From an uncultured bacterium (lineage in GTDB: Bacteria > Verrucomicrobiota > Kiritimatiellia > CAIKKV01): a DNA stretch of 64,000 nucleotides. Shown here piece by piece: positions 1 to 29,317 of the stretch. Location: NCBI GenBank assembly GCA_938038445.1, contig CALHRZ010000017.1, forward strand, positions 12,065-76,064, in the 5' to 3' direction. Below the pieces are notes generated by a model. That model was not told the DNA's origin, did no database searches, and saw only the letters and a program-made list of their open reading frames with translations. The stretch's first letter is position 1. Each line of letters begins with the position of its first letter. Both the position numbers and the translations under genes were made by a program.

Positions 1-1928
1 AGCGGGCCGGCATCAATCGGACACGGCTTGTTCGTGGACGAAACCCCCGCCCGCCCTTCGAGATCACTCGTCAGGGCCCGACCTTCCTCAGCCGTTGACA
101 CAACTCGGGGGGTAACAAAAACCAGAAGATTGGTGCGTTCCCGTCCGTCCGCCGTTCGCCGGAACAGCCTCCCGATTAGGGGGATGGCACTCAAAACCGG
201 AATCCGCCGTTCTGTACGGACCTGATCTTCACGGATCAAGCCGCTGAGCACAATCGTCTCGCCGTTGGCCACGGTGACGGTCGTCGAAACTTCACGCCGG
301 GCAATTGTCGGCGTAAAGGGAGTCCCTGAAGGACCGGGATCCACAATGGCCTCGATGCTGGGATTCAGGGTCATGCGAACCAAACCATCCGGGGTGATAT
401 GGGGTGTCAGTTTGAGCTTGATCCCCACATCCATACGCTCAATGTTTTGTATGACATCCCGAGCCGTTCCGGTCCCCGCTTGAATGGTGGACCGTAGGAT
501 GGGAATGTTGTTCACCACGCTCACACTGGCATCCCGATTGTTCTGCGCAAGCAGCGGCACGTTCGAGAGAATCTTGAACCGTCCTTCCTTCCGCAACGCC
601 TGAATGTTGACGAGCGCCGGAAGCGCCGTCTGAAGCGTACCGTCCGCTGCCAGGCGCATGCCCCGTGCAAGGCCGATCGTCAAGCCCTGGGGAAACAGCC
701 CCCCTTCGACGGCCCTCATAATGGCCTCGGCGGATTCATTAAGCATTCCGCTCCCCTGAAACGCATACCGCCCCACGTCGCCGGGCGCCCCTAATGCCGC
801 CCATTCCACGCCCCATTCGCCCCCCTCGCTGGCCGAGACTTCCGCAATCAGCACTTCGATCAAGACTTGACCGGGAAACTGATCCAATTGCCGGACAAGG
901 GCTTCCACCTGCTCGAAGTCGCGAGGGGCAGCGTCCACCAGCAGTGCATTGTTGGCCGGATTCGCTTCGAGAAACACAGCGCCGGTTGGCCCAGCTCCTT
1001 TCGGACTCGAGGCGGAGGCCGCCAGAAGCGCTTTCAGGCTGGCCGCCGCTTCCTCAGCCGGCAAATGCTTCAGAAAGATGGCACGCAGCCGTCCCCGCCC
1101 TGCTTCCGGCTCCGAATCCAAACGGGCCACAAGGGTTTTCATTTCCTCGACGGCCGCCCGAGATCCCACAAGGATCAACCCGTTAATCTGCGGCGCTGCG
1201 ACAGCCTTGACCGCCCCGGTTCGCTCTCCAGGCGCAATCTGGCGACGAATGCGATCCGCTTCGGTTTCCAGAACGGCCATGGCTTCCGTCAGTTGGCGGG
1301 CTGCCTCTTCGGCCGAAGCGTGCCGCAAAGGGACTACCTCGACAACCCGAGCCAGCCCTGGCCGGTCTACGTTCGCCGCAATCTGTTCGACTCGAATGAC
1401 CCAATCGGCCGGCCCGCCGGCCACCAACATGTTGGCCGACGGAAGAACTCCAACGTAGCCTTTCCTCTCGCCACCGCCCATTTCGTTCAGCGCATTGCGT
1501 AACTCCTGGGCAGGAATGTGTTCCAACCGAAAGACCTTGGTGACCCACCCCGCCCCCGCCGGAGACTCGTCGGGACCTGCCACACGCCCCAAGACGCCGG
1601 CGGCATCCGCACGCGCGGTCACACGCGTAAGGCCGTCTTCCCCCTCCCAGACCACGCACCCCGCCGATTCCAAAACAGCCGCCAAGAGAGGATATAAATC
1701 CCCCACCGGAACATTCGCGGCCGTCAGCGAAACCCGCCCCTTGATCCCTTCAGCCACCAGGATCCGCCGACCGATCATCTCCCCCATCGTCGTGACAAAT
1801 GCCGGAATTTCTACCCCTTCGAAATGAAGGTCCACGCGCCCTTCGTTCATGGTTTGGGCGGGCAACAACGCGATGAACGACAACAGATAGACTATACCCG
1901 CTGTTCCAGTGATCCGAACGCGTTTCAT
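1..1928 (-). CDS. Secretin (GspD/PilQ family; type II secretion / type IV pilus outer-membrane channel). The 3' end runs off the window start.
   Basis: I translated the minus strand by hand from the ATG at 1928..1926: MKRVRITGTAGIVYLLSFIALLPAQT (signal peptide), then an N0-like domain (VDLHFEGVEIPAFVTTMGEMIGRRILVAEGIKGRVSL), then the C-terminal secretin core (VPLLAQNNRDASVSVVNNIPIL...TVTVANGETIVLSGLIREDQ...IPVLSAIPLIGRLFRR...LLVFVTPRVV). No stop occurs before position 1, which is why it is missing from the ORF track. The start overlaps the lptF/G stop (TAATG). Confidence 0.75.
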   Translation of the reverse strand, partial: MKRVRITGTAGIVYLLSFIALLPAQTMNEGRVDLHFEGVEIPAFVTTMGEMIGRRILVAEGIKGRVSLTAANVPVGDLYPLLAAVLESAGCVVWEGEDGLTRVTARADAAGVLGRVAGPDESPAGAGWVTKVFRLEHIPAQELRNALNEMGGGERKGYVGVLPSANMLVAGGPADWVIRVEQIAANVDRPGLARVVEVVPLRHASAEEAARQLTEAMAVLETEADRIRRQIAPGERTGAVKAVAAPQINGLILVGSRAAVEEMKTLVARLDSEPEAGRGRLRAIFLKHLPAEEAAASLKALLAASASSPKGAGPTGAVFLEANPANNALLVDAAPRDFEQVEALVRQLDQFPGQVLIEVLIAEVSASEGGEWGVEWAALGAPGDVGRYAFQGSGMLNESAEAIMRAVEGGLFPQGLTIGLARGMRLAADGTLQTALPALVNIQALRKEGRFKILSNVPLLAQNNRDASVSVVNNIPILRSTIQAGTGTARDVIQNIERMDVGIKLKLTPHITPDGLVRMTLNPSIEAIVDPGPSGTPFTPTIARREVSTTVTVANGETIVLSGLIREDQVRTERRIPVLSAIPLIGRLFRRTADGRERTNLLVFVTPRVVSTAEEGRALTSDLEGRAGVSSTNKPCPIDAGP

Positions 1929-3001
1929 TAGTTCAACCGACGCATCAGCCATGTTCCCAGAATAAGAGAAACCAGAATGGGAAGCCAGACCAAAAGATGA
2001 GGCCGATATTCGGGATGATCGCCCAGGGACTTGGGAATAATGATCGCCATGTAAAAGAGAACAGCCACCAGAAGACTGAGGCCAAGACTGATCGAAGACT
2101 CCTTGCGGGGATTAAACACCGCAAGGGGAACGCCAAGTAGAACAAAAACCACCGCCGCCAGCGCCATGACTATCCGTTTATGGATTTCCACCAAAAGCCG
2201 GTAGCGGCGGAGCGGGGCGGCGGCGGTTGCCGCCATCTCCTCTACGATCTCCGTCAGCGTCAGGGTGGTGGGCTTCTTTTCATCCGAAAGGGTAGCGGTA
2301 CTTCGGATCGGAAGCCGAATCGGCCACCGCTGAACAAACCCACCAGCGGCTCCCCCTTCGAGGAAGGGCGTGATCTTGACCTCTCGCAGATCCATTTCAG
2401 CATAATCGCCTTCGGGAGAAAGAGCCAGGTGGCCCGAGCGCGCCTCGATCCGCCGCAGCGAACCGTTCCGAAGGGTCTGCAAAATCAGGACATCGTAAAT
2501 GGCATCCCCCTCCCGTTTCCCGATCCGGACGGAAAGGGTCGGCCCAAGCGCGATAAACTGGCCTTCTTCCAACAGGCTAAGGGCCAGCGAGGACCGCATC
2601 TGGGAGAGCAGTTCCCGCTGCCGTGTCTCAATGCGGGGCGCAATTTCGAAATTGACAGTCAACTCGACGGCGGCAAGAAACGCGCCAATCAGCATGGGCA
2701 TCCGGATCGCCTGCCAAAGGCTGATTCCGCAGGACTTCATCGCCGTCAGCTCCTGATCCCTGGCCAACCGGCCAAACAGTAAAAGAGTGGCCGTCAGCAG
2801 ACTTATCGGAATCGAAAAGGAAAGAAAAATCAGAAAGGAAAGCCCGAAAAACCGCACAATATCCTGAGAAGGAGCCCCCCGCGCCAGAAGATCGGTCAGT
2901 TTAAACAGGCTGAGCAGGGACATGACAAACGTCATCACGACGAGCACGGCCGCCACGGTCGCCAGAAAAGAGAGACCGATGTAACGTTGAAGAATTCGCA
3001 T
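1928..3001 (-). CDS. LptF/LptG family LPS export permease (YjgP/YjgQ)
   Basis: The 357-aa product begins at MRILQRYIGLSFL (ATG at 3001). It has multi-TM N- and C-terminal halves around a periplasmic beta-jellyroll-like middle, the typical LptF/G architecture. The ORF-track start at 3223 is a spurious N-terminal extension. Confidence 0.75.
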   Translation of the reverse strand: MRILQRYIGLSFLATVAAVLVVMTFVMSLLSLFKLTDLLARGAPSQDIVRFFGLSFLIFLSFSIPISLLTATLLLFGRLARDQELTAMKSCGISLWQAIRMPMLIGAFLAAVELTVNFEIAPRIETRQRELLSQMRSSLALSLLEEGQFIALGPTLSVRIGKREGDAIYDVLILQTLRNGSLRRIEARSGHLALSPEGDYAEMDLREVKITPFLEGGAAGGFVQRWPIRLPIRSTATLSDEKKPTTLTLTEIVEEMAATAAAPLRRYRLLVEIHKRIVMALAAVVFVLLGVPLAVFNPRKESSISLGLSLLVAVLFYMAIIIPKSLGDHPEYRPHLLVWLPILVSLILGTWLMRRLN

Positions 3002-3039
3002 AAATAAATTAACCGGGCCGCCGAAACCGTTTCCGGTCT

Positions 3040-4458
3040 TCAATACCGGTAATGGTCCGGCTTGAAAGGTCCGTCGGGCGACACACCGAGATAGACCGCC
3101 TGGCGGCGCGTGAGACGGTCCAGTTTCACACCCAATTGGGCCAGATGAAGCCGGGCCACCTCCTCGTCCAGACGTTTGGGGAGAACATAAACGCCGGGCG
3201 CATACTGGCCCCGCCGAGTCCAAAGTTCAATCTGAGCAAGGACCTGATTCGTGAAACTGTTGGACATGACAAAGCTCGGGTGCCCGGTCGCGCATCCCAG
3301 ATTAACCAACCGCCCCTGCGCCAACAGGATAATGCTTTTCCCATTCGGAAAGGTGATTTTATCCACTTGCGGTTTAATATTTTCCCAGCGGTATTTTCGG
3401 AGGCGCTCCACCTGGATCTCATCATCGAAGTGGCCAATGTTGCACACAATCGCCATGTCCTTCATGCGCCGCATGTGCCGCTCTGTGATGACGTCGCAAC
3501 AGCCCGTCGCCGTCACAAAAATATCTCCAATCCGGCAGGCTTCCTCCATCGGCATGATTTCATATCCCTCCATGGCGGCCTGAAGCGCGCAAATGGGATC
3601 AATCTCCGTGACGATGACTCGGGCACCCTGGCCGCGAAGCGCGGCGCAACAGCCTTTGCCGACATCCCCGTATCCCGCCACAACGGCGATTTTTCCTGCA
3701 ATCATAACGTCCGTCGCGCGGTTCAGACCATCTACGATGGAATGACGGCAGCCGTAGAGGTTGTCGAACTTGGATTTCGTGACCGAATCATTGACATTAA
3801 AGGCGGGAAATCGGAGCCGCTTTTCCCGGTGCATCTGCAGCAAACGCCGAACCCCCGTCGTGGTTTCTTCGGAAACGCCCACCAGTCGCGCCGCCATCCG
3901 ATGAAAACGGCCGGGATCGCGTTCGAGCACCGACCGAATCCGCTTCAAAAGGGCCGCTTCGTCCCCACCCCGGGGACGCCGTTGGAGTACGGCGGGATCC
4001 TCCTCCGCTTGGCAACCGAGATGGAGGAACAGCGTAGCATCCCCCCCGTCGTCCACAATGAGGTCAGGCCCCCCCTCGGCCCCCCAGTCTAGGGCGCGAT
4101 CGGTAAACTCCCAGTATTCATCCAGCGTCTCGCCCTTGCGGGCAAACACCGGAACCCCTTTGACGGCAAGAGCCGCCGCCGCATGATCCTGAGTGGAAAA
4201 GATGTTGCAGCTTGCCCATCGAACGCGAGCGCCCAACGCGAGAAGGGTCTCAATGAGAACAGCCGTCTGAATGGTCATGTGAAGCGAGCCGCTGATGTGC
4301 GCTCCCTTCAAAGGTTTCGCTCCCGCATAGCGGCGCCGGATCTCCATCAAACCGGGCATTTCCTTTTCCGCCCACGCGATCTCTCGGCGGCCCCATCCCG
4401 CCAGCTCGAGATCCGCCACCACATAATCCGCTATATCGCGCGTTCGCTTCGCACCCAT
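3040..4458 (-). CDS. ahcY: S-adenosyl-L-homocysteine hydrolase (adenosylhomocysteinase)
   Basis: Start is [27 protein letters not shown]. It carries the NAD-binding motif [19 protein letters not shown] and the tail [17 protein letters not shown]. The 472-aa length is typical. Confidence 0.9.
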
Positions 4459-4474
4459 GATTATCCCTCCCCCC

Positions 4475-5641
4475 TCACACGGCTTCCCGCAAAGCCTCAA
4501 GACGGTCCGTCCGTTCCCATGTAAAGACTTCCGCCGGCGTTGTGCGCCCAAAATGCCCATACGAGGTCGTGTGGGTAAAGATCGGCCTGAGGAGATCAAG
4601 CGTCCGGATGATCTCGGCAGGCTTGAGCGGAAAAACACGCCGAACTGCCGCCTCAATTCGCGCTTCGTCCAGATGGCCTGTGCCAAACGTTTCCACCCGG
4701 ACCGAAACGGGATCGGGATATCCAATCGCATAGGCAAGCTGCACTTCGCACCGCCGCGCCAGACGGGCGGCCACAATGTTCTTGGCAATGTAGCGCGCCA
4801 TGTATGCGGCGCTCCGGTCCACCTTGGAAGGATCCTTCCCGGAAAATGCGCCGCCCCCGTGCCGCCCCATGCCCCCGTACGTGTCCACAATGATCTTGCG
4901 CCCCGTCAACCCGCAGTCGCCCTTAGGACCCCCCAGGACGAATCGCCCCGTAGGATTGACGAGTATCCGCGTTTTCCGGGTTAGAAGATCCGCGGGAACA
5001 GTCGGGCGGATGATCGTCTCGATAATCCCTTCCCGAAGCGTCCGGTACCCAACTTCGGGCGCATGCTGGGACGAAACGACCACCGTGGTCACTTCCCGAG
5101 GGCGTCCCTCTTCATAAGCCACCGTAACCTGCGTTTTGCCGTCGGGGCGAAGAAACGGCAGCGTTTTTTTGCGACGAGCCGTCGCCAGCGCTTGACTCAG
5201 CCGATGGGCCAGCATGATGGGCATCGGCATCAACTGGGGCGTTTCGTCGCATGCATACCCAAACATCATCCCCTGATCCCCAGCCCCCTGCTCCCGATTG
5301 TACAATCCCTGACCGGGAGTCACGCCCCGCGCAATGTCCGGAGACTGGCGTTCGATCGCCACCAACACCGCAACCGTCTCGTCCGAAAAGCCCAGTTCCG
5401 GGTCCGTATATCCGATCCGCCGAATCTGGGCGCGGGCCACATCCCCGTAATTCACCTGGACCGCACTGGTGATTTCACCGGCGATGACCACCATACCGGA
5501 TTTGACAAGCGTTTCGCAGGCAACTCGGCTTCCCGGATCCCCCGCAAGATGCGCATCCAGCACAGCATCTGAAATCGCATCCGCCACCTTGTCCGGATGC
5601 CCCTCCGTAACCGATTCTGAAGAAAATAGACGTTGTTTCAT
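4475..5641 (-). CDS. metK: S-adenosylmethionine synthetase
   Basis: Hallmark motifs are [30 protein letters not shown] and [19 protein letters not shown]. The product is 388 aa. Confidence 0.92.
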
Positions 5642-5667
5642 CACAGCTCCCTGAAAACCGAATAGTA

Positions 5668-7452
5668 TCATGAAAAGGCGCCAATAAGGTCAAGCAATTC
5701 GGGCGCCACCCGGCGAATCATTCCCCGGCACATGGCGAGAACTGCGTCGGCCGTTTCCGCCGCAAGCGCCTCTTCCGCCAACGCACGGCATTCCGACGAC
5801 GAGCATTTGAGAAGGTAATGCTTGACGAGCGGAATGTTCGCCGGATTCATGCTCAGCCGGCGGACGCCTAATCCCACCAGCAGAGGGGTCAAGACCGGAT
5901 CGCCCGCCATTTCGCCGCAAACCCCCGTCCAAATACCCGCGTGGCGTCCTCCTTCCACGGTCGTTCGAATGAGTCGAAGGATCGCCGGATGGGTCGGCGC
6001 ATAAAGCGACGCCACCCGATCGTTTACCCGATCCACGGCCAGGGTGTATTGGATGAGATCGTTGGTCCCCAGACTGAAAAACGCAACCTCCTTCGCCAGG
6101 ATATCCGCCGCGACCGCAGCCGCCGGCGTTTCAATCATGATCCCAACCGGCATGCGTTCACCAAAGGGCATGCCTTCCCGGTGGAGTTCTTCGCGGACCT
6201 CCTGAAGCAGCGCATTGGCTCGCCGGACTTCCTCGACCGTCGTGATCATCGGATACATCAAGAGGACATTTCCTCCCACAGCCGCACGCAAGATGGCCCG
6301 CAGCTGGATTTTAAAGATTTCAGGATAGGCAAGACAAAACCGGATCGCGCGGAACCCAAGGAACGGATTGGCTTCTATAGGAGTTCGAAAGGCGGGCAGA
6401 ACTTTGTCCCCCCCACTGTCCAGGGTCCGAATGATCAGGGATGCCGGCGCAACAGCCTCCGCCGCCTTCCGGTAGGCTGCATATTGTGTCGCTTCGTCCG
6501 GTAACGTATCGGCTTTCATAAACAGATATTCCGACCGCATCAGGCCGACCCCTTCGGCCCCGTGCCGACGAACCTCCCGGGCTTCCTCCGGCGTCTCAAT
6601 GTTTGCCTCCACCGCAATGTCAACGCCGTCGGCCGTCCGTCCCTTCTCGTGTTGATGGCGAACCGCCAAATCCCGCCGAATCTTCTGCCGCCATTCGACC
6701 AGTTTCCCATATTCCCGCAGCCGGGACGCCGCAGGATGAATGACCACCAGCCCTTTGTCGCCATCCACCAGCAGTTCATCCCCCGGCGCGACCGATCGGC
6801 AAACGTCCCGAAGCCCAACCACAGCCGGTATTTCGAGCCCCCGCGCCATGATCGCCGTATGCGAAAGGGGGCTGCCCCCTTCCGTCACAAACCCCAACAC
6901 TTGATCTTTTCGAAACATGGCGGTTTCCGACGGCCCCAAATCATTCGCGACCACCACACATTTCGTCTGAACCCCCGAAAGCGAAGGAACCTGACGGCCC
7001 ATGAGATTCCGGATCAAACGCCGCGCGACGTCTCGAATGTCGGCAACGCGCTCCTTCAAATAATCGTCTTGCAAAGCCGAAAGCGCTTTGGAATATTCGA
7101 CCGCCGCTTCCTGCGTCGCCTGCTCGGCGTTCATCCCCTGCTCGCGGATTTTTCGGACAACCCGGTCAATAAATAAACCGTCTTCCAACACCATCTGATG
7201 CATCTCGAAAATGCCTGCGTCGGCACGCCCAATCGTCTCGGTGGCATGGGATTGAATCTCGCGCAACTGCCGCCGCGTTTCGATGACCGCCCGCTCAAAA
7301 CGCGCGATCTCCTTCATAATCTCGCTCTCGGCAATCGCCCGAACGGGCACCTCCTCGTCCTCTCGAGAAAGGACAACCGCAGGGCCTACCGCCACTCCGC
7401 TGGAAACCCCCATGCCTTGCAGCAAAATCTCCGGTTTTTCCCTTCCCGGCAT
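5668..7452 (-). CDS. ptsI: Phosphoenolpyruvate-protein phosphotransferase (PTS Enzyme I)
   Basis: 594 aa. It has the active-site-His region [22 protein letters not shown] and a PEP-utilising C-terminal domain ([16 protein letters not shown]). Confidence 0.88.
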
Positions 7453-7459
7453 CCGACGC

Positions 7460-7759
7460 CTACTCCTCGTAAAACTTGTTCTCGATCAACTGCTCAAGTT
7501 CCTGGAGTACGCGATCGGCATCGGTTCCGATCGCCGTCACCTTCATTTTGGAGCCCAACCCCGCTTCCAATGTCATGAGCCCCATGATGCTTTTCCCCGA
7601 AACCGTATTCCCGTCTTTTTCCACCAACACATCGGAATCGTATTTCGATGCAATCTTGACAAAAAGCGCCGACGGCCGGGCATGCAGACCGAATTTGTTC
7701 TTGATCGTGAACACTTTCAGCCGTGTAAGAGGCTTTTGCGAATCCGAATTCTGGCTCAC
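7460..7759 (-). CDS. ptsH: Phosphocarrier protein HPr
   Basis: 99 aa. The KNKFGLHARPSA motif places the His15-equivalent correctly, and GKSIMGLMTL places Ser46 correctly. Confidence 0.85.
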   Translation of the reverse strand: MSQNSDSQKPLTRLKVFTIKNKFGLHARPSALFVKIASKYDSDVLVEKDGNTVSGKSIMGLMTLEAGLGSKMKVTAIGTDADRVLQELEQLIENKFYEE

Positions 7760-8715
7760 GAAGGACGTTCTCCCGTCAGTATGGCTTTCAGTTTGCGATC
7801 CAATTCAGCCCCCGCATCATGTCCCTGCAGCCTCAACCGATGGACAAGAGCCGCCGTTTCCACCACATTGGCCAGATCGCGGCCCGGCGCCACAGGAATC
7901 TCCACAAACGGAATTTCAACCCCAAGCACGTTGCGAGTCGGCTGCTCCTGTCCGTCTCGTATCAGCTCGGTTTCGACTTGGCTGTCCGGAGAAAGATGGA
8001 TGATCAAATCGAGAGTCTTTTCGTCCCGAACAGCCGCAATCCCATACAAGCTGGGAACATGGATGATTCCGACGCCTCGAATTTCCATGTGGTGCCGCGT
8101 CACCTCGGAAGGCGTTCCAATCACCGACCCTGTACTGTCACGGCGCATCCACGTCACGTCGTCTGAAACCAACCGATGGCCGCGTTTGATAAGGGAAAGC
8201 GCCAGTTCGCTCTTCCCCATCCCCGCCTTACCTTGCAGAAGAACCCCCAGCCCAAACACCTCCAACAGCGTCCCTTGCATCAGCAGACGAGGCGCAATGA
8301 GATTCTCCATCAGCACCGTCGCCGAATTGATGAAATTCATCGTCACCATCGGACTCCGCAAAGCCGGCGTTTGCGTCTGATCGCAGAGCTCCTGGACCTC
8401 CGCCGGCAACCGTCGTCCCCGCGTCACCACAAGGCAGGGGATGTCGCAGGCGAGCACCCGCGCCATACGGTTTCGCCGCTCCGCCAAGGGAAGAGAGGCG
8501 AGATACGCCAGCTCCGCATTGCCCAGGATCTGGACGCGCCGATGCGCAAAATAACTGAAAAAACCCGTCAACGCTAGCCCCAAACGGTTGAGCGAGGGCT
8601 CCTGAATCGGCCGTTTAAGCCCCGCATTCCCGGCCACAAGATCCAACTGAAGGCGGGCTCGACCGCTTTGATAAAAGGTTTCAACCGTCAACGTGGGTTT
8701 TCCAGGCGGAATCAT
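7756..8715 (-). CDS. hprK: HPr kinase/phosphorylase
   Basis: 319 aa. It has the P-loop GKAGMGKSELAL and the HprK signature LVSDDVTWMRR...HMEIRGVGII. A 4-nt overlap joins it to ptsH. Confidence 0.85.
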   Translation of the reverse strand: MIPPGKPTLTVETFYQSGRARLQLDLVAGNAGLKRPIQEPSLNRLGLALTGFFSYFAHRRVQILGNAELAYLASLPLAERRNRMARVLACDIPCLVVTRGRRLPAEVQELCDQTQTPALRSPMVTMNFINSATVLMENLIAPRLLMQGTLLEVFGLGVLLQGKAGMGKSELALSLIKRGHRLVSDDVTWMRRDSTGSVIGTPSEVTRHHMEIRGVGIIHVPSLYGIAAVRDEKTLDLIIHLSPDSQVETELIRDGQEQPTRNVLGVEIPFVEIPVAPGRDLANVVETAALVHRLRLQGHDAGAELDRKLKAILTGERPS

Positions 8716-9068
8716 TCTGAATTCTCTTCCCCTTTCAGGCGCTGGACTTCCAACCGCCCCAGTTTCTCCCCGTTCTGATGCTGGGTGATCCGCTTCTCAC
8801 GAAACCGATTCAGCTGACGCACTATCTTGTCCACCGCCCGATCAATCGAAGCATAAAGATCTTCCGATTCATCTTTCACCTCTGTTTGAAGATGGGAACG
8901 GCCGGTCACGACAATCTCCGCGATGCGGCGAAATTTCGAGACATCCAGGATGACATGGACGGACTGGACGAACGGAAAATCGGCCAGATGATGCTCGACC
9001 CGTTTCCGAGCGTACTCCTTGATGGCATCCGTTACTTCCACGTGGCGTCCCGTGATTTCGATGCGCAT
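8712..9068 (-). CDS. hpf: Ribosome hibernation promoting factor (HPF / RaiA / sigma-54 modulation protein family)
   Basis: Start is MRIEITGRHVEVTDAIKEYARKRVEH..., the classic YfiA/HPF N-terminus. The ATG at 9068 is preferred over the ORF-track start at 9143. Confidence 0.8.
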   Translation of the reverse strand: MRIEITGRHVEVTDAIKEYARKRVEHHLADFPFVQSVHVILDVSKFRRIAEIVVTGRSHLQTEVKDESEDLYASIDRAVDKIVRQLNRFREKRITQHQNGEKLGRLEVQRLKGEENSE

Positions 9069-9093
9069 GGCATCTCCCTTTGGTTGTTCGGTT

Positions 9094-9849
9094 TTACATA
9101 CTAAACCGGGGACCCAGATAGAGCTCCCGGCTAACCGGATCATGAATCAGGAACGAGGCGGAACCCTCCCGTAGGACCTTTCCTTCGCAAATAAGACAGG
9201 CACGGTCCACGATCGAGAGCGTCTCGCGAACATTATGGTCGGTGATCAGAATCCCAAGTCCCCGTTCCCGCAAATCCGAAATGATCTTCTGCACGTCGTA
9301 AACCGCCAACGGATCCACCCCGCTGAAGGGTTCGTCAAGCAAAATCATCGCCGGCTCCGTGACCAGGGCCCGGGTAATCTCCAGGCGGCGCCGCTCCCCA
9401 CCACTCAGGGTGTGAGCCGGCTGTTTCGCCAGCGTCGTCAAACCCAACCGCGCCAGAAGCCGTTCCAGCCGTTCCCGCCGTTCGCGGGCCGTCAACGGCA
9501 GCGTCTCGAGAATCGCCATCACGTTCTCGGCAACCGTCAATTTCCGAAAAATAGAAGGTTCCTGCGACAAATACCCCATTCCGGCCCGCGCACGTCGATA
9601 CATCGGCCACGCGGTCACATCCTTCCCCCGAAACCATACCCGCCCCCCATCCGCACGGATCAACCCCACAATCATGTAAAACGTGGTGGTCTTTCCGGCG
9701 CCATTCGGACCCAACAAGCCCACCACCTCTCCCGGCCGTACGGCCAACGAGACGCCGTCCACCACCCGCCGCCCCCGGTACACCTTCACCAAACCCTCCG
9801 CTCGCAAGAGCTCCCCATTCGATGCTTCGCCTCCGGTCACAACCCCCAT
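9094..9849 (-). CDS. lptB: LPS export ABC transporter ATP-binding protein LptB
   Basis: Walker A is GLLGPNGAGKTT, the signature is LSGGERRRLEI, and Walker B is ILLDEPFSGVD. It sits immediately downstream of lptA/lptC, as in Proteobacteria. Confidence 0.85.
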   Translation of the reverse strand: MGVVTGGEASNGELLRAEGLVKVYRGRRVVDGVSLAVRPGEVVGLLGPNGAGKTTTFYMIVGLIRADGGRVWFRGKDVTAWPMYRRARAGMGYLSQEPSIFRKLTVAENVMAILETLPLTARERRERLERLLARLGLTTLAKQPAHTLSGGERRRLEITRALVTEPAMILLDEPFSGVDPLAVYDVQKIISDLRERGLGILITDHNVRETLSIVDRACLICEGKVLREGSASFLIHDPVSRELYLGPRFSM

Positions 9850-10328
9850 CCCTTCGATCCCTCTTTCCCGGGCGATAGAATCATGACCGGCCGTTCGCAT
9901 TCAACCCGATTGGTGGTTCGCCAGAATGTGATTTTCGTACCACTCAACTGTTCCGTTCCACGCAGGACCATCGCATTGCCGGTCAACACCAACCGACCAT
10001 CCTCAACAGTATACTCCGCCTCGTCCGCCGTGGCAATCCGATCCTGCTCGGTGATCCGCACCCGACCCGTTGCTCGGGCCGACTGAAGCTGCTGGGTCTT
10101 GGAATCCAGCTGAACAACCAACCGCTCGGCCTCGATTCTCATCGTCGGATCCTTCGCGACGACTTCCCCCTCGAAAACCGCCGTCATTTTCCCATAATCG
10201 AAAACCAGCTTTCGGGCCGTGATTTCCGTTCGGTTGGTGCCACTCTCCCCCCCTGAAGCAAGGTCCTGAGCCCGAAGCCCAGGAATGCAAAAAATGATGA
10301 TTAGAATGACCTCCAAAATCCGCTTCAT
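9837..10328 (-). CDS. lptA: LPS transport periplasmic protein LptA (OstA-like N-terminal domain)
   Basis: Start is MKRILEVILIIIFCIPGLRAQ (signal peptide), followed by an OstA_N-like beta-jellyroll (AERLVVQLDSKTQ...ATGRVRITEQDRIATADEAEYTVEDGRLVLTGNAMV). The ATG at 10328 is verified in the sequence. Confidence 0.7.
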   Translation of the reverse strand: MKRILEVILIIIFCIPGLRAQDLASGGESGTNRTEITARKLVFDYGKMTAVFEGEVVAKDPTMRIEAERLVVQLDSKTQQLQSARATGRVRITEQDRIATADEAEYTVEDGRLVLTGNAMVLRGTEQLSGTKITFWRTTNRVECERPVMILSPGKEGSKGWGL

Positions 10329-10792
10329 GGCCTCTTCTCCCGCTCGAACCATTGTGTTCCCAGAGTGGTCACCACCCGGACATTCCGAAGAATGGTCACT
10401 TCGGTTCCGCCATTCTGCCACCGAAGTCCTTCCCCCGTCATTTGAAGTCCCGCACGGGTGACGCGAACTTCGCTCTCGGAAGTCATGCGCCCCGTCCGGA
10501 CATTGTAAAGACACTCCGCCGTCCACATTGTCATGCTCATCCGCCCTTCCTCATACACTTCCACACGGGCGTCGTAAAGGCGAATGAACGCCCCCTCCTT
10601 GACCGCCCTCTGTCCGTACAGTTCCGCCTTGAGTCGCCCCCCCTCGTCATAATGCGGCAAACGAAATTGCTCAAAGGTCATCGGCCCCGTTCCGGCTTCG
10701 GGAACGCGGATTTGGGCACGGGCGGCTCCCAAGACAACCCAAAGGCCAACCCCGGTCGCCAAAAGCCCTTCCCTAACCGGCCACAATCGCAT
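10325..10792 (-). CDS. LptC-like LPS export periplasmic/anchor protein
   Basis: The 155-aa product has an N-terminal hydrophobic anchor (LLATGVGLWVVLGAARA). It lies directly upstream of lptA-lptB, and the start overlaps lptA by 4 nt. The call rests on position and size. I did not see a sequence motif. Confidence 0.5.
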   Translation of the reverse strand: MRLWPVREGLLATGVGLWVVLGAARAQIRVPEAGTGPMTFEQFRLPHYDEGGRLKAELYGQRAVKEGAFIRLYDARVEVYEEGRMSMTMWTAECLYNVRTGRMTSESEVRVTRAGLQMTGEGLRWQNGGTEVTILRNVRVVTTLGTQWFEREKRP

Positions 10793-11597
10793 GGATCCTC
10801 CTAGCCTCTTCCCAAAGAGAGGGAAGGCGCTCAAATGGTAGGGAATTTTCTCGGTCCGACAGCGCCTTCTCAGGCGTCAAATAGGTTTCAAGAAAGAGGG
10901 CATCGCAGGCACCCGTGGCCACTGCAGCACGGGCCAGCGCCGGCGCCCATCGCCCATCTCCCCCCGAATGATCACCCGCTCCACCCGGCCGTTGCACACT
11001 GTGCGTTGCGTCGAAAATAACCGGATAGCCCAGGTCACGAAGCACAAGCAGGCTCCGCATGTCCGCCACAAGATTATGATAACCGAACGACGCCCCACGC
11101 TCCGTAGCCAGAAGACGGCGGTTGCCGGCGCTCTCGGCTTTTGCAAAGACCGCCGCCATATCCTCCGGCGCGAGAAATTGCCCTTTCTTAACGTTCACCA
11201 CCCGGCCCGTTTTCGCCGCAGCCACAATCAGATCGGTCTGCCGGCAAAGAAAAGCAGGAATCTGAAGAATATCGGCAACCGCAGCCGCAGCTTCCACGTG
11301 AATGGTTTCGTGAACATCCGTCAAAATCGGCACGCCGAATCGTGCCTTAACCTCCGCAAGAATCGCCAAGCCTTGCTCAAGTCCCGGCCCGCGAAACGAA
11401 GCGCCCGACGTCCGATTGGCTTTGTCATAACTGGCCTTGAAAATAAGAGGAACCCCCGCGCGACGGGCCCAATCCGTCAACGCCTGCGCCAATTCCAGAC
11501 AATCCTCCCGGCTGGAGATGACACACGGCCCCGCCACAAGCGCCAAAGGCCGGCCTTTCCCGATTTCAATTGCACCGATCCGAACGGTGAGCATCAC
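10773..11597 (-). CDS. kdsA: 2-dehydro-3-deoxyphosphooctonate aldolase (KDO-8-phosphate synthase)
   Basis: 274 aa. The N-terminus is IGAIEIGKGRPLALVAGPCVIES-like, and the family motifs are FKASYDKANRTS and VIFDATHSVQ. Confidence 0.85.
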   Translation of the reverse strand: MMLTVRIGAIEIGKGRPLALVAGPCVISSREDCLELAQALTDWARRAGVPLIFKASYDKANRTSGASFRGPGLEQGLAILAEVKARFGVPILTDVHETIHVEAAAAVADILQIPAFLCRQTDLIVAAAKTGRVVNVKKGQFLAPEDMAAVFAKAESAGNRRLLATERGASFGYHNLVADMRSLLVLRDLGYPVIFDATHSVQRPGGAGDHSGGDGRWAPALARAAVATGACDALFLETYLTPEKALSDRENSLPFERLPSLWEEARRIHAIVAG

Positions 11598-12349
11598 ACA
11601 GCCTCCATCGCATTCGGCGCCCCCAACCGCGAGAAAACCTCTTCTGCGGCACAGAGATCTTCCGGCGTGTCGACTCCCAATCCCCTGTAAACGGTTTCCA
11701 GCACCAAAATTCGTCCGCCTGCATGGAGAGCGCGGAGTTGCTCCAGTTTTTCCGCCTGTTCCAGCGCACAGGGGGGAAGACGCACCAGCTGCATCAGAAA
11801 CGGCCGGCGATAGGCATAAATCCCGATGTGCCGCCAGCGGACAAAAGCGCCCGTTCCTTCCCGCTCATACGGAATGGGGAGGCGTGAAAAATACAACGCC
11901 CCGCCGTCCGCCCGGCATACGACTTTAACCACGTTCGGCGACTGGGTCTCTTCGGCCGTTCGAATGGGACAAGCCGCCGTCGCCATATCCCACTCCCCAT
12001 CGCCAAGAAGACGCTCCGCGAGTTCGTCAATCAACCGAGGTTCCACAAACGGTTCGTCCCCTTGGATGTTGACCACCACGTCGGCATCCATTTCCGCCAC
12101 GACCTCGGCCGCCCGATCCGTCCCGCTCGGATGATCGGAACGGGTCATCACAACCCGCCCGCCAAAGGCTCTCACAGCCTTCGCAATCCGCTCATCATCC
12201 GTCGCCACCGCCAGCCAGTCGAGCCGATGAGCGGTGGAGCACCGCTCCCAAACCCACTGAATAAGCGGTTTCCCTCCCAGCCGCGCAAGGGCTTTGCCGG
12301 GAAAACGTGTAGAACCCCATCGGGCCGGAATAACGCCAACCGCCCTCAC
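11594..12349 (-). CDS. kdsB: 3-deoxy-manno-octulosonate cytidylyltransferase (CMP-KDO synthetase)
   Basis: 251 aa. The N-terminus is VIPARWGSTRFPGKALARLGGKPLIQWVWER, and NIQGDEPF is present. Confidence 0.85.
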   Translation of the reverse strand: MRAVGVIPARWGSTRFPGKALARLGGKPLIQWVWERCSTAHRLDWLAVATDDERIAKAVRAFGGRVVMTRSDHPSGTDRAAEVVAEMDADVVVNIQGDEPFVEPRLIDELAERLLGDGEWDMATAACPIRTAEETQSPNVVKVVCRADGGALYFSRLPIPYEREGTGAFVRWRHIGIYAYRRPFLMQLVRLPPCALEQAEKLEQLRALHAGGRILVLETVYRGLGVDTPEDLCAAEEVFSRLGAPNAMEAV

Positions 12350-20601: not shown

Positions 20602-21438
20602 TTACTCCTGAACAACCTCGACGTTCCGCAGCGTCTTGATGAGATCGTTCGTCAGGATCACCATGCTCAAAATGATGTTGTTGGCACGGTTGCGGAAAAA
20701 ATAAAAGAAAGCCACGGCGGGAACCGCCACCGAAAGACCGGCGGCCGTCGTGTAGAGCGCCTGGGAGATGTTCTGCGCAAGGAGCGCCTGCTGGGCGGCA
20801 CCGGCTTGCTGCGTTCCAAGGGTCGCAAACGCATAGATCATTCCTTGCACGGTTCCCAGAAGCCCCAGCATTGGGGCCAGGTTGGAGACAACGGAAAGAT
20901 AGGAAACCTTCTGAAGCAGCCTTTCGCTCTCCAAATCCGCAACCGCATTGATGGATTCCTGAATCACGTCGAATCCTTCTTCCACATTTTCAAACCCGGC
21001 GCGCAGAATGTTGGACAAAACCGTCGGCTCCTCCTTGCAGTACTCCAACGCCTTCCCAAGGTCCCCCTCATTCATCGCAGTCCTGACTTTCTCCAGAAGC
21101 GGAGCCGGCATGATCTTGCTCGGCCGGATTTTGACGAACGAATCGATAATCAGGTAGATGCCGGCCAGTGAAGTGGCGAAAAGGCCGGCCCAGAGGAGAA
21201 TTCCCAACGCGCCGCTCCCGGTCACCACATCCCAGAAGTTTGTGGCGCCTGCTTGCTGCTCTGCCTGCGTTTTGCGGGCGGCCGCCTCTTCCGCCGTCAT
21301 GGTTTCCTGGGCAAACGCCGATCCAGAACCGATGATGATCCAGCCTGCCGCGATGGCCGCCACGGCGGCCCGTTTCCACTGTCTGCTCATGGTGTCGACT
21401 CCTCGTTTCAACCGCTCAAGTCCGATGCTCGCCCGCAA
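20602..21438 (-). CDS. MotA/TolQ/ExbB proton-channel family protein
   Basis: A putative signal-peptide-like N-terminus is followed by three TMs and the conserved ExbB C-terminal region (APMLGLLGTVQGMIYAF...TTAAGLSVAVPAVAFFYFF). An alternative start is at 21390. Confidence 0.8.
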   Translation of the reverse strand: MRASIGLERLKRGVDTMSRQWKRAAVAAIAAGWIIIGSGSAFAQETMTAEEAAARKTQAEQQAGATNFWDVVTGSGALGILLWAGLFATSLAGIYLIIDSFVKIRPSKIMPAPLLEKVRTAMNEGDLGKALEYCKEEPTVLSNILRAGFENVEEGFDVIQESINAVADLESERLLQKVSYLSVVSNLAPMLGLLGTVQGMIYAFATLGTQQAGAAQQALLAQNISQALYTTAAGLSVAVPAVAFFYFFRNRANNIILSMVILTNDLIKTLRNVEVVQE

Positions 21439-21440
21439 CT

Positions 21441-22250
21441 TCAGGATCCCTTTTCCAACCGGGTTTTCGCTCGCACTCCAAACTCAGACTCGGGATATTG
21501 CCCGGCTTGCCGATAAAATTCAAGACTCTGTTCCGGTTTCCCCATCCGCTCCAACGTTTCGCCTGCTCGCCAGGCGGCTTCCGGAACCCATTCACGTACC
21601 TCCCGAAAAAACCGAGCGGTGCGCATAAAATCGAACAAACCCCCTTCGATATCGCCATTCTCAAGGCGTACGCGCCCCCGAATAACCTGGGCCGCAGCGG
21701 CTTCCCGCCGCGTCCCCTTGCGGACCATCTCGTCCAACAACGGATCCAGCCGATCCCGGCGTCCCAACCCCGCCAGCGATCGGGCAAGGCCGACCCTCAT
21801 CGCTTCATCACTCGTCAGATCGGCCGCACCTTCCGACGCCGCATCCAGGTTCCGGATCGCCTCGTCCCAGCGTCCGATCTCGACGTGGCAAAGGCCCATA
21901 TATTTCAACGCCTTTAGATCCCAACCCAAAAAGCGATACTGCTCCACAATTCCCTGAAGCAGACGGATGGCTTCGTCGTATTCCTTCTTCCGCATCCGTT
22001 CCAGCGCCTGACCCATGGCCACAGGTTCGTCCATGATTACCCGGGTCCCTTTCGGGTATTCCAGCCGGGCACCCTCCGGCAGGATGAGTATGATCGTACC
22101 ATCCGCCGCCGCACGAACCTCGCGGCCCTCCACCCGGCGTCCGTCAGGCAACACCACGATAGGATTTCCAGCCCATACCCCTTCCCAGGCTCCCTCCAAA
22201 CCCAAAGCGAACACCGCAAACGCCTGCGCGGCCAACCGTCTCACCCTCAT
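21441..22250 (-). CDS. TPR-repeat protein (secreted)
   Basis: 269 aa. It has an N-terminal signal-like segment and TPR-like helical repeats (EYDEAIRLLQGIVEQY...WDEAIRNL). An ATGA overlap joins it to the upstream TPR gene. Confidence 0.6.
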   Translation of the reverse strand: MRVRRLAAQAFAVFALGLEGAWEGVWAGNPIVVLPDGRRVEGREVRAAADGTIILILPEGARLEYPKGTRVIMDEPVAMGQALERMRKKEYDEAIRLLQGIVEQYRFLGWDLKALKYMGLCHVEIGRWDEAIRNLDAASEGAADLTSDEAMRVGLARSLAGLGRRDRLDPLLDEMVRKGTRREAAAAQVIRGRVRLENGDIEGGLFDFMRTARFFREVREWVPEAAWRAGETLERMGKPEQSLEFYRQAGQYPESEFGVRAKTRLEKGS

Positions 22251-25200
22251 GATCCTGAACCTCCCGTGGTTCGGCGCAGAATAGCTTCACTGCGCCACCG
22301 GCGAACCTCCTCGGCACCCCCCGCGTGGGGAAATTCCGAGGTAAACCGGTTGGCGTTTTCGACCACATCATCCCAACGCCCACCCTCCCGGAAGAGACGA
22401 ACGCTTTCATAAAGCGCCTTTTGGTAAAAGGGGCGAATGACCGGATCATCCGGTTTGCTCAAGAGGACAATCCGCTGGTAGGACGCAAGGGCTCCGTCTC
22501 GATCGCCCTGGGCAAGCTGGAGTTCAGCAAGTTCCGTGGTCGCCCGGGTAATCAACCGCTGATCGGTCGCCCGCAAAAAGACATCGCGCAAGACCTCGGT
22601 CGCCTCCTTAAGGCTTCCGGCGCCACGTAACGCCCGTCCAAGAAGGAAACGCGCTTCAAAGAAAAAGGGCGACCGCGGATACTCTTCGATTAGCCGACGC
22701 AACGCTTCAGCCGCTTCCGCCGGCCGATTGAGCGCCAGACGGGATTGCCCTAGCGCCATAAGGACACGCTGTTCCACATCCCCGCGCCGAACTCCCTCGG
22801 TCAGAGCATCCATCCGCTTGAGGGAAGCCTCAAACGCTCGAGCAGCCGCCTCGTGACGACCGCGATCTTGAAACAGAATTCCCGCTCGAAGAAATTGATC
22901 GGCCGGATAGCGGTCCGCCTCCCGAAGCATTTCCTGCAATACCTCCTCCGCCTTTTCCAACCGCTGAATCTCAATCAGACTCCTCAGCATGGCAAGCCGG
23001 GCGTTCTGACCGGCTTCCGACTGGGGATACTGCGTCGCCAGCTCTTGGTAAACCGCAGCCGCCTCATCCGAACGCCCTTCCACCAGCAGGATTGCGCCCA
23101 TCGTGCTGAGCGCGGTCGGCGCAAGCGTCGATTTCGGATAGGTTTCCACAAACCGGCGAAGATGGGCAATCGCTTCCTTACGGGATGCGGCGCCGGCCTC
23201 TCCCGCCCCCGCCATCAACATCTTGCAATATCCAAGATAGAAAAAGGCTTGCTGGTGGATCTCCTCATTCTTGCGCAACGCCTCAATAGATGTACTAAAC
23301 GCCCCACCTTTGTTATCCAGCCAACCCGTCAACTCCGCGTAATGTTGAAAAGCGTCCGCATAAGCGCCCATCTGGCGGTAGGCATCGGCCAGACAAAGCT
23401 TCGCCTGAGCCTTTTCCGTCCCCGCCTGCGCATCCGCCAGAAAGCGGGAGAACCCCTCGACCGCCCGGGGAAAATCACCCCGTAAATAATAAGCCCACCC
23501 GATCCGGTTGAGGGATTGGAGATAGCGGGGGGTCTTCGTGTACCGCTCGACGAGACGCCGGTAATAGACAACGGCACCCTCGTAATCCTCCACTTTCCAA
23601 CGCTGCTCCCCTAACATGAACAGAATTTCAGCCGCACTCGGATGCTCCGGAAACCCTTCCAGATAGCGCTCGTAGAGAAAGAGATAGAGATCCCGATTGT
23701 TTTGCTCGAAGAAATAACGGCCCACCCGAAGAAAAGCCTGGGCCGCAAGGGGATTGCCTCCAAACCGTTCCGCAAGATACTCCGCCGTGACCCGCAAACT
23801 CAACAGATCGCTCACCCGAGCATAACATTCGAGCAGATTCCCCAGCGCCGCAAGAGGCTCTTCTCCCTCGGGAAAATCATTGAGCCCTTTCAAATACTGC
23901 TCAATTGCTTTTTCGTACTCTTTCCGGCTGAACAAATTGTGCCCCTCGCGAAGCACAACGCGGGCGATTTTCTCCCTGCCCCCTTCCCGCGCCTCGATCG
24001 TAACCTCTTTTCCCGTGAGTTCCTTCACTCGGCTCTTGATGCGATCAATCGCTTCCCCCGCATTTTGACTCCAATCCGTCCCCGGATAACCGGAAAAAAC
24101 CCCGTAATAACGCCGAAGCGCTTCCGCATAATGCGAGAGGGCCAATTCCAGCCGTTTTTCCTCCAAGGCGACGTGATTCCGTCCGCGTTCCATCTCCACA
24201 AAACCCGCAAACTTCTCGCCCGGCAACAGGTCGGGCTGGGGAGAAACCCCATGCTTTTTGTCGAAGGAGTCTGCCGTCTGAATCAGTTTCTGAACCCGTT
24301 CCTTGAGTTTATTCTTCCGGTCCGCGACGGCGGGCGTCCATCCGTCTCCGCTTTCCAACTCCAAAAGGACACGCTCGAATTGGCGAGCGCTTTCGAGAAA
24401 ACGGAGAAATGGTTCCTGCCGCGCCTCGGGGGTTCCAGGCAACGTCACAGTCGTTTTTTCCTTCGCGGCCCGATCCAGGATCGCCGCGTCCCGCTGGGCA
24501 ACACGGGCGATCAGGCTCCAGAGTTCTTCAAATTCACCTGCCGCGCGTTCCAGAAACCGAAGGGCTTCCGCTTCCCGCACCTCACGGGAGGCCGTTAAAA
24601 AATCTCCACGGTCCTTATGAATCCGCCCCAAAAGGCTGAGCGCGCCGGCATAAGGGCTCTCGGAAACCAACCCCGCTTCGGACAGCCGTTCATCCAGTTT
24701 CCGAAGCATCTCCATGTTCTTGTTGAGAAGCGCGATCGCCTTGTCTTCATTCCCCTCCAACAATTCCACATGCGCCAACGCAGCAACGGCTCGGCCGAAC
24801 CAAAGGTCCATGCCTCCCCAAACAACCTCGTCACTGTTCGCCCGCGCCTTGCGAATTAAAGACTCCCGTTCCTTGCCGGCCGGAAGGCCACGGGCCGCTC
24901 GCAGAAGAAGTTCGGCCTGCTCCAATTTGAGTTGCCGAAGAGCGTCCCGATCGTCCGGCCCCAGCAGGGGAAAAATGCGGTCGTACATTCCGGCGGCAGC
25001 AAGGGGATCGTTGGCCATCGCCAACATCTGAGAAAACTTGTATGCGGCATCCCGAAAAAAGCGCCGAACATCTGGATCGGTCGGAACGGCATTCGTGTGC
25101 CGATTGAAGAAATCCGCATAGATCGCGCGGGTCTTTTCACGCTCGCCTGCCATGAAATAGCCGTCCGCGAGCGCAAGAAGGATCGCCTGCGCTTTGGGAC

Positions 25201-29300: not shown

Positions 29301-29317
29301 CGGAAAAGCCAGGAATT

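Follow-up and report, generated by a model that had tools for sequence, protein, structure and literature searches.

The Locus and the Secretin Gene

The window, a 64,000-nucleotide stretch of DNA from an uncultured Kiritimatiellia bacterium, opens within the 3' end of a secretin gene that adjoins a gene encoding an LptF/G-family permease. The features of this part of the window are the following.

1..1928, minus strand: gspD, type II secretion (T2SS) secretin, codons 1-642 of 645 (translation, Pfam, TIGR02517, and PDB alignment)
99..599, minus strand: secretin C-domain, aa 444-610 (PF00263, 1.6e-44, profile positions 1-168 of 169)
885..1547, minus strand: three N1-N3 domains (Secretin_N, beta-alpha-beta-beta-alpha), about aa 128-348 (PF03958, three stretches, 2.3e-32)
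1620..1826, minus strand: N0 domain, aa 35-103 (PF21305, GspD-like N0, 1.9e-09)
1851..1928, minus strand: signal-peptide-like N terminus, MKRVRITGTAGIVYLLSFIALLPAQT, with a basic n-region and then a single hydrophobic segment, aa 11-22
1926..1930, minus strand: TAATG, the lptF stop (TAA) and the gspD start (ATG) with one shared base; no Shine-Dalgarno-like motif upstream
1928..3001, minus strand: LptF-like LPS-export ABC permease, 357 aa, solitary (PF03739 LptF_LptG, 1.3e-66)

Translation of the minus strand gives 642 complete codons from the ATG at 1928..1926 to position 3, with no stop inside the window. The window edge removes only the 3' end of the gene, which a 100%-identical public contig supplies as three codons (L-K-P) and a stop. 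In a 100%-identical Logan contig and in an ENA contig the gspD product is 645 aa long, with a C terminus ending in GPLKP that is in register with those of 19 homologs, whose lengths range from 635 to 665 aa. The stop three codons past the window is therefore the natural end of the protein, which settles the concern, raised in the initial annotation, that the frame might prove to be a pseudogene. Because the edge cuts the 3' end and not the 5' end, the sequence beyond position 1 is downstream of gspD; the earlier suggestion to look there for pilMNOP or gspC as upstream neighbors had the orientation reversed, and the genes found are gspE and gspF. The gene had also been described as unannotated. 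This is correct insofar as it is missing from the open reading frame list, in which frames running off the source go unlisted, but an identical 645-aa protein, unnamed and with the same Pfam domains, has already been predicted in public collections.

An upstream ATG at window position 1952, the start called on the Logan contig (653 aa), was considered and rejected in favor of the TAATG start. The extension that it would add lies inside lptF, and between the window and an 81%-identical relative this region carries two substitutions that are synonymous in the lptF frame and non-synonymous in the extension frame; the choice of start codon rests on these two substitutions only, which is thin evidence.

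The domain content agrees with the initial proposal of a secretin of at least 642 aa with a signal peptide, an N0 domain, and the conserved core. The N0, Secretin_N, and Secretin matches are far beyond chance, and the N-terminal segment is signal-like, contains no Cys, and is thus not of the lipoprotein type; GspD homologs have equivalent short hydrophobic N termini. The product also passes the GspD model TIGR02517 (370.9 bits; cut-off 351.35), matching profile positions 1-600 of 600. Consistent with this, alignments of PDB GspD chains span aa 33-611 (E values of about 1e-50 to 1e-53), such that solved GspD, PulD, and XcpQ chains cover nearly the full length of the window secretin. An AlphaFold model of moderate confidence (mean pLDDT 61.9, monomer pTM 0.36), used for domain count and family ranking and not for detail, contains three N-domain repeats at aa 128-187, 195-270, and 281-348, is beta-rich over aa 354-610, and ends in a short helix at aa 613-627. 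Its N0-N1-N2 region superimposes on XcpQ N012 crystal structures with TM scores of 0.70-0.75, normalized to the target. In a fold search with the model, T2SS secretins were the best matches, with an identity to the solved proteobacterial secretins of only 21-26%.

The gspDEF Module Closes a 15-Gene Co-Directional Run

Directly 3' of gspD lie gspE and then gspF, followed by a convergent PHP gene. Thus, the secretin, which had been thought to stand outside a gsp operon, is the first gene of gspD-gspE-gspF. The best model for the gspE product is TIGR02533 (553.6 bits, compared with 495.5 for PilB), though the GspE cut-off of 630 is not reached, and that for the gspF product is TIGR02120 (215 bits, below the cut-off of 424). 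The window and the 8 kb beyond it yielded neither gspC, L, M, or O nor any canonical pseudopilin gene, and none of these was found 3' of gspF in any of 52 related loci. Within the window, the one related item is an atypical protein with a T2SSG domain, encoded at 38601-39374.

The module ends a co-directional run of 15 genes, kdsB-kdsA-lptC-lptA-lptB-hpf-hprK-ptsH-ptsI-metK-ahcY-lptF-gspD-gspE-gspF, in which the gaps from kdsB through gspD range from -20 to +38 nt. The genes upstream of lptF are as follows.

3040-4458, minus strand: ahcY (Pfam)
4475-5644, minus strand: metK (Pfam)
5668-7452, minus strand: ptsI (Pfam)
7460-7759, minus strand: ptsH (assigned by synteny with the 81% relative)
7756-8715, minus strand: hprK (Pfam)
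8712-9068, minus strand: hpf (Pfam)
3040..9068, minus strand: the ahcY-to-hpf chain upstream of lptF as a whole, intergenic gaps of -4 to +38 nt
9094-9849, minus strand: lptB (Pfam; NCBIfam LptB, 341 bits, cut-off 240)
9837-10328, minus strand: lptA (Pfam)
10325-10792, minus strand: lptC (Pfam; NCBIfam LptC, 38.2 bits, cut-off 38)
10773-11597, minus strand: kdsA (Pfam)
11594-12349, minus strand: kdsB (Pfam)
9094..12349, minus strand: the LPS block heading the chain as a whole, overlaps of -4 to -20 nt

In Proteobacteria, the corresponding cluster is ordered kdsD-kdsC-lptC-lptA-lptB-rpoN-hpf-ptsN-rapZ-npr. The kdsB-to-ptsI run of the window resembles it in order and logic. In contrast to the proteobacterial cluster, the window chain lacks rpoN and ptsN and continues into metK-ahcY-lptF-gspDEF.

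The secretin and permease genes run in the same direction with an overlap of 1 nt (TAATG, 1930..1926), as noted initially. Judging from this spacing, gspD would be co-transcribed with lptF and may be translated by termination-reinitiation coupling to it. Promoter-like sites (sigma-70-type consensus only) and terminator-like sites in the chain do not exceed the counts expected from shuffled sequence, and the scan is thus silent for or against a single transcript. A GGAG-like motif precedes most genes of the chain, but not gspD.

The lptF-gspD Contact Derives from the Loss of fabZ-lpxA at This Position

To place the junction in context, a search found 361 relatives, and the locus was compared with 80 species loci from Kiritimatiellia, Lentisphaerae, and Verrucomicrobiota metagenome-assembled genomes, with denominators that vary by gene. 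Of 76 related species genomes, 72 have lpxA as the gene next to gspD on its upstream side, a finding that removes the ground for regarding a linkage of the secretin to LPS genes as unusual; fabZ and lpxA together precede gspD in 69 of 74 loci. The FabZ and LpxA proteins of the relatives pass their NCBIfam equivalog cut-offs. On the other side, gspE is next after gspD in 68/71 loci, and gspF is present in 60/63. The nearest relatives (GspD identity 54-59%) all have the same flanks, in the order ptsI-metK-ahcY-lptF-fabZ-lpxA-gspDEF. In the window lineage and in the 81%-identical relative, a segment of ~1.25 kb carrying fabZ-lpxA is absent at this locus.

Three independent assemblies, namely the window, Logan ERR9287890, and ENA ERZ6864144, share an identical TAATG junction, and the 81%-identical relative has the equivalent junction as TGATG, again without fabZ-lpxA, in three further samples (ERZ27247264, SRR10848475, and SRR9650341). 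Loss or movement of the fabZ-lpxA segment explains how the stop of lptF came to be fused with the start of gspD; by this comparison of sequences, the lptF-gspD contact is a derived state that arose from the loss of fabZ-lpxA at this position. The same loss took away the Shine-Dalgarno-like sequence that many relatives (an estimated 43 of 66) carry before gspD.

Neither fabZ, lpxA, nor prepilin-type N termini were found elsewhere in the window and the adjoining contig extension. A search for LpxA homologs gave no match from samples carrying the window lineage, and together with the five contexts inspected it returned only fabZ-lpxA-gspD arrangements from other lineages, with no displaced fabZ-lpxA. 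One of the five is an E. coli-like contig with an internally duplicated lpxA and is irrelevant here. As the lineage retains kdsAB, lptABCE, and waaL-like and heptosyltransferase genes, a complete absence of lpxA would be surprising.

Interpretation of the Locus

Collectively, these data indicate that the frame at the window edge is a complete, ordinary gspD heading gspD-gspE-gspF. We put the probability of the full reading, a T2SS-type secretin GspD whose gspDEF genes form the tail of a co-directional run from which fabZ-lpxA has been lost or moved, at roughly 0.85. GspD secretins form a gated outer-membrane channel, roughly a 15-mer, that secretes folded proteins. By analogy, the window protein would leave the cytoplasm by the Sec route and multimerize into the outer-membrane pore of a T2SS-type machine, with GspE as the putative cytoplasmic ATPase and GspF as the putative inner-membrane platform; the three would constitute a conserved core module, and pseudopilins and other components would be encoded outside it.

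The window secretin shares its domain order, a similar length, and the adjacent gspE and gspF with known GspD proteins (PulD, XcpQ, EpsD; PDB 5zdh, 5wq7, 6hcg, 5wln). Unlike the proteobacterial GspD loci, the operon has no gspC or gspG-M and is appended to LPS genes. As with the reduced T2SS of Chlamydia trachomatis and Cytophaga hutchinsonii, the gene set differs from the proteobacterial operon of 12-15 genes. The organism, of whose genome ~72 kb was covered, resembles Kiritimatiella glycovorans as a member of the PVC group with T2SS-like genes. Incomplete T2SS gene sets outside Proteobacteria have been noted (PMC6617341) and a T2SS has been reported in Kiritimatiella (PMC5148204); neither paper mentions a module made up of gspDEF alone, or one joined to fabZ-lpxA or lptF. 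The locus represents no new kind of system. Its value for annotation is a complete GspD heading gspDEF, overlooked at the window edge. A modestly useful by-product of the comparison is that gspDEF is joined to lipid A/LPS-export genes across ~75 species-level genomes and that this lineage has cleanly lost 1.25 kb, which coupled gspD to lptF anew; this could guide studies of the operons and regulation of secretion in polysaccharide-degrading PVC bacteria.

The adjacency of LPS and T2SS genes might instead be functional, with the T2SS core placed in an outer-membrane biogenesis supraoperon that ties secretin production, by stoichiometry or regulation, to LPS synthesis and export; for example, insertion of the secretin might need newly delivered LPS. 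The lpxA-gspD adjacency does persist across genomes whose GspD proteins are only 42-57% identical, and the spacing is very tight (estimated median 25 nt, with the genes overlapping in 16 of 66). In addition, gspD is still attached to another LPS gene after the loss of fabZ-lpxA, and kdsBA-lptCAB lie upstream on the same strand. However, synteny alone does not demonstrate functional dependence. The chain also includes unrelated housekeeping genes (hpf, hprK, ptsHI, metK, and ahcY) and thus has the appearance of an unspecific, compact run of genes; lptF has no fixed place, only 15 of 65 loci having it within 3 kb of gspD; and the papers searched for secretin linkage to lpxA or lptF report no such link, offering nothing relevant beyond general statements. 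We therefore regard a functional supraoperon as unlikely, and the adjacency would represent an operon structure that was inherited, or shared regulation of envelope genes, and not a new secretin function. The more specific proposition that lipid A/LPS-export operons (fabZ-lpxA, or lptF where these were lost) carry gspDEF as a fixed 3' appendage in Kiritimatiellia, Lentisphaeria, and relatives, with the genes co-transcribed and often translationally coupled so that secretin and T2SS output is mechanistically tied to outer-membrane LPS supply, appears distinctly unlikely; if true, it would be an envelope-biogenesis link undescribed for any T2SS.

As an alternative to the T2SS, the window protein might be a PilQ-like or MshL-like secretin serving a type IV pilus or another type IV filament; with PilQ it shares a homologous C-terminal secretin domain and partners from the same ATPase and platform families. 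The strong PilB score of the gspE product, its MshEN-type N-terminal domain, the failure of GspE and GspF to reach the T2SS equivalog cut-offs, and the lack of gspC, L, and M nearby are all compatible with such a system. The T2SS models are nonetheless the best ones for both GspE and GspF, and the secretin, which passes TIGR02517, reaches only 180.1 bits with the PilQ model TIGR02515 (cut-off 284.35), over its C-terminal half only. Moreover, it has N0 and three GspD-like N domains with no Pfam AMIN match, and the match to PDB PilQ chains is confined to aa ~270-614 (~1e-25), whereas that to GspD chains is full-length (1e-53). The gene context points in the same direction, with no pilMNOP upstream but lptF, or lpxA in relatives. 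A pilus-type assignment is therefore very improbable.

Finally, the idea that the junction is an assembly artefact (a chimeric join deleting fabZ-lpxA), or that gspD is a pseudogene truncated past the window, could appeal to the retention of fabZ-lpxA here by nearly all relatives and to the stop codon missing from the window itself, but it can be set aside with near certainty, the artefact being refuted by independent contigs with the same junction from two other sample accessions and by the TGATG counterpart in the 81% relative, and the truncation by the in-register end of the protein at 645 aa.

A Solitary LptF-Like Permease

The initial annotation had also remarked that a single LptF/G-family gene is present, and this is upheld. 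No second LptF/G-family ORF was found in the window and its 8-kb extension by phmmer (--max) or with a clade HMM (E<=1), or by Pfam among the window's remaining ORFs of membrane-protein size. Likewise, no second paralogue was found in 84 related loci (~1.3 Mb total), the gene being solitary in every related locus that carries one. A partner for the solitary permease could lie elsewhere in the genome. There is precedent for a single LptF/G homologue in the diderm Firmicutes Negativicutes and Halanaerobiales (PMC5007114).

The PF03739 match covers profile positions 1-353 of 353, and six hydrophobic segments (3+3) flank a hydrophilic stretch of ~160 aa, the topology of the family. The protein scores 175.9 bits with the LptF model TIGR04407 (cut-off 230) and 133.2 bits with the LptG model TIGR04408 (cut-off 240). 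PDB LptF chains match over the full length (E 1e-16), whereas LptG chains match only the N-terminal part (1e-6 to 5e-4). Because it falls below both equivalog cut-offs and is nearer to LptF by PDB comparison, the 357-aa permease is filed only as an LptF-like family member.

In E. coli, lptF and lptG form a tandem. The window differs from the E. coli LptB2FG system in having one LptF-like gene in place of this pair. It resembles the LptB2FG extractor in the complete PF03739 domain, the 3+3 transmembrane arrangement, and the central periplasmic domain of the permease, as well as in the lptC, lptA, and lptB genes located 6 kb upstream on the same strand and an LptE-like gene within the window.

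The Clipped Gene Encodes a GspD Secretin

The left end of the window carries a stop-free minus-strand frame preceded by an LptF/LptG-family gene, with two further genes of the same module lying beyond the edge.

3001..1928, minus strand: lptF-like gene, 357 aa, full-length LptF/LptG permease (PF03739, 1.3e-66)
1930..1926, minus strand: TAATG junction; TAA is the lptF-like gene stop and ATG the gspD start
1928..1926 (ATG) to the left edge, minus strand: gspD frame, 642 complete codons, stop-free by translation
Downstream of gspD, outside the window: gspE, 535 aa, MshEN and T2SSE domains
Downstream, outside the window: gspF, 402 aa, T2SSF domains

The initial annotation had described a secretin gene running off the window and overlapping the LptF/G stop by 1 nt, and both points hold. 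The frame was absent from the ORF list only because the lister leaves out any ORF that continues past the end of the source. Pfam searches, including the proposed Secretin and Secretin_N check, matched its product to GspD-like N0 (aa 35-103, 1.9e-09), Secretin_N (three stretches, 2.3e-32), and Secretin (aa 444-610, 1.6e-44), and the product spans the NCBI curated GspD equivalog TIGR02517 end to end at 370.9 bits (cut-off 351.35 bits); these matches far exceed chance. In an AlphaFold model of moderate quality (20 homologs, mean pLDDT 61.9, pTM 0.36), N0 is followed by three N domains of beta-alpha-beta-beta-alpha pattern, then by a secretin domain rich in beta structure and a short helix at the C terminus, and a PDB fold search with this model ranked PulD, GspD, ExeD, EpsD, and XcpQ at the top, followed by T3SS InvG and PilQ. 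Among named homologs, GspD proteins from MAGs of Kiritimatiellia, Lentisphaerae, and Verrucomicrobiota are the nearest, with a top non-self match of 81% identity and a next group at 54-59%. Solved T2SS secretins (5zdh, 5wln, 5wq7-9, 6hcg) align across nearly the full product (E 1e-50 to 1e-53); PilQ chains align to its C-terminal half only (~1e-25). A type IV pilus secretin is disfavoured, as the PilQ score is under its cut-off, the AMIN domain is not matched, and the locus lacks the pilMNOP context for which a check had been suggested. The gene is an ordinary gspD clipped by the window edge.

An exact-sequence look-up of the LptF/G protein retrieved Logan contig L001 (ERR9287890), which matches window positions 1..3775 at 100% identity and continues beyond position 1, placing the gspD stop three codons outside the window (…GPLKP, then stop) and giving a protein of 645 aa, which already existed as an identical unnamed prediction (P0001). 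In an alignment with 19 homologs (624-693 aa), the C terminus is in register with the closest relatives, and therefore this stop is the natural end, not a truncation, which lays to rest the earlier concern that a stop just beyond the edge would mark a pseudogene. ENA contig ERZ6864144 has the same gspD sequence and lptF-gspD junction, and the presence of junction and intact gene on independent contigs rules out both an assembly artefact and a pseudogene. The Logan gene call starts gspD at an in-frame ATG 24 nt farther 5′, inside lptF (653 aa). Within this extension, the two positions at which the window and the 81% relative differ are silent in the lptF frame but non-synonymous in the extension frame, which tentatively favours the TAATG start.

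gspD Heads a gspDEF Module

On L001, gspE and gspF lie directly downstream of gspD, and a convergent PHP-family gene after gspF closes the operon. gspD therefore heads a gspDEF module and is not, as had been supposed, stranded outside a gsp operon. The top model for GspE is T2SS GspE (553.6 bits, versus 495.5 for PilB) and that for GspF is GspF (215 bits), each under the strict equivalog cut-off. In T2SSs generally, GspD is exported by Sec and forms multimers in the outer membrane, where it is the exit pore for a machine that is driven by a pseudopilus and powered by GspE on the GspF platform; the product of this gene would most likely act in the same way. Neither the window plus 8 kb nor the region after gspF in 52 related loci contained gspC, L, M, O, or canonical pseudopilin genes, in agreement with a remark in the literature that T2SS-like sets outside Proteobacteria can be incomplete (PMC6617341). 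The genome of Kiritimatiella glycovorans is reported to contain a T2SS (PMC5148204).

Elsewhere in the window, the product of 38601-39374 (+) is 257 aa long; it starts with a zinc-ribbon-like motif (CPYC...CPHC), has a single TM segment, and carries a globular domain of the T2SS GspG type (PF08334, 2.9e-18; TIGR01710, 56.5 bits, under the 88.85 cut-off). The canonical prepilin G-F-T-L-I-E cleavage motif is absent from this protein, which would seem to be pseudopilin-like but anchored in the membrane and not cleaved. In three related loci (L045, L071, and L073) a second secretin gene lies <10 kb from gspDEF, in L071 as part of a gspE-gspD-gspE set encoded on the other strand, pointing to further type IV filament or secretion systems in these species.

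gspDEF Is Attached to Lipid A Genes across the Clade

Scanning a single genome for each GTDB species yielded 80 loci (L002-L081), annotated by phmmer and locally built HMMs.

Gene order around gspD (denominators, loci with enough flank)
lpxA directly upstream: 72/76 loci (a 73rd is a sorting artefact and is uncounted)
fabZ and lpxA both upstream: 69/74 loci
gspE next downstream: 68/71 loci
gspF downstream: 60/63 loci
lptF <=3 kb upstream: 15/65 loci

The fabZ and lpxA products exceed the FabZ and LpxA equivalog cut-offs, and the estimated lpxA-gspD spacing has a median of 25 nt, with overlap at 16/66 junctions. From this synteny and tight spacing, gspDEF is as a rule attached to lipid A genes in the clade. 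The conserved fabZ-lpxA-gspD-gspE-gspF block, often preceded by lptB...ptsI-metK-(ahcY)-(lptF), was not found described in the literature searched. Functional coupling between LPS and the T2SS, for which the support is synteny, is an unlikely reading; we regard the synteny and the small deletion described below as minor comparative-genomic notes.

The Window Lineage Lacks fabZ-lpxA at This Site

The closest relatives (L002, L003, L085, P0011, and L089-L092) all have the order ptsI-metK-ahcY-lptF-fabZ-lpxA-gspD-gspE-gspF, followed by the same convergent PHP gene in L085 and P0011, where the downstream flank is seen. The window and the 81% relative (L082-L084, three samples) are colinear with them minus fabZ-lpxA, and the lptF-gspD contact is therefore a derived, lineage-specific version of the conserved block, created by loss or relocation of ~1.25 kb. 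The secretin-LPS gene linkage, initially considered unusual, is accordingly commonplace in this clade, and only the contact with lptF is a variant.

The organism clearly keeps the LPS pathway, as the window holds kdsA, kdsB, lptC, lptA, lptB, an LptE-like gene, a Wzy_C-type O-antigen ligase (40618-42033, −), and a GT9 heptosyltransferase (49250-50200, −), the last two showing that genes for assembly of the LPS core and O antigen have been kept although fabZ-lpxA is missing from its usual place. Because these genes are retained, lpxA is expected elsewhere in the genome, relocated instead of lost, although an LpxA homolog search and context look-ups did not find it. A 411-aa "LpxA" on an ENA contig (L087, 6444-7679), E. 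coli-like with an internal duplicated segment and lying in rseP-bamA-skp-lpxD-fabZ-lpxA, has no connection with the window organism and is most likely an assembly artefact.

The Solitary lptF-Like Gene and the Upstream Chain

The LptF/G-family protein has the expected topology, 3+3 hydrophobic segments around a ~160-aa hydrophilic stretch, and is LptF-like by sequence: NCBIfam LptF scores 175.9 bits versus 133.2 for LptG, and PDB LptF chains align full length (E ~1e-16) versus the N terminus only for LptG chains (1e-6 to 5e-4). As first noted, no tandem pair is present here; the gene stands alone in the window, as it does in each related locus that has it, and the related loci, ~1.3 Mb in all, contain no lptF-lptG pair. 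Diderm Firmicutes offer a reported case of a single LptF/G homologue (PMC5007114). In one locus (L018, 1184-2352) the lptF-like gene is in two adjacent ORFs (HMM positions 11-234 and 232-379), the result of either a frameshift or an error in sequencing this MAG.

On the same strand, kdsB, kdsA, lptC, lptA, lptB, hpf, hprK, ptsH, ptsI, metK, ahcY, the lptF-like gene, and gspD follow one another 5′ to 3′ with gaps of just −20 to +38 nt, and simple promoter and terminator scans of the chain gave no excess over shuffled expectation. The one-base lptF-gspD overlap is TAATG in the window and TGATG in the 81% relative. A GGAG-like motif lies 5-12 nt upstream of most genes of the chain but not of the window gspD; it precedes gspD in an estimated 43/66 relatives. 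Given the gene spacing and these motifs, gspD would be co-transcribed with the upstream genes, and the ribosomes that translate it would be those that terminate at the lptF stop. The lptC-lptA-lptB-hpf-hprK-ptsH(-ptsI) run (7460-10792, −) mirrors the proteobacterial lptCAB-rpoN-hpf-ptsN-rapZ-npr order, but lacks rpoN and ptsN and has HprK and PtsI instead.

Other envelope-related genes are present in the window. At 50255-51774 (+), a TPR/YfiO (BamD-like) lipoprotein gene overlaps the LptE-like gene that follows it (PF04390, 1.9e-11) by 4 nt, forming another outer-membrane biogenesis pair. A long cluster (20602-38567, −) of two MotA/ExbB genes, one ExbD, a DUF4159 protein, unassigned ORFs, and five TPR proteins (269-1527 aa, four of at least 629 aa) resembles an energised envelope or transport complex. 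Finally, 56281-57309 (+) encodes a CsgG-family protein (curli-type secretion channel; PF03783, 4e-35).
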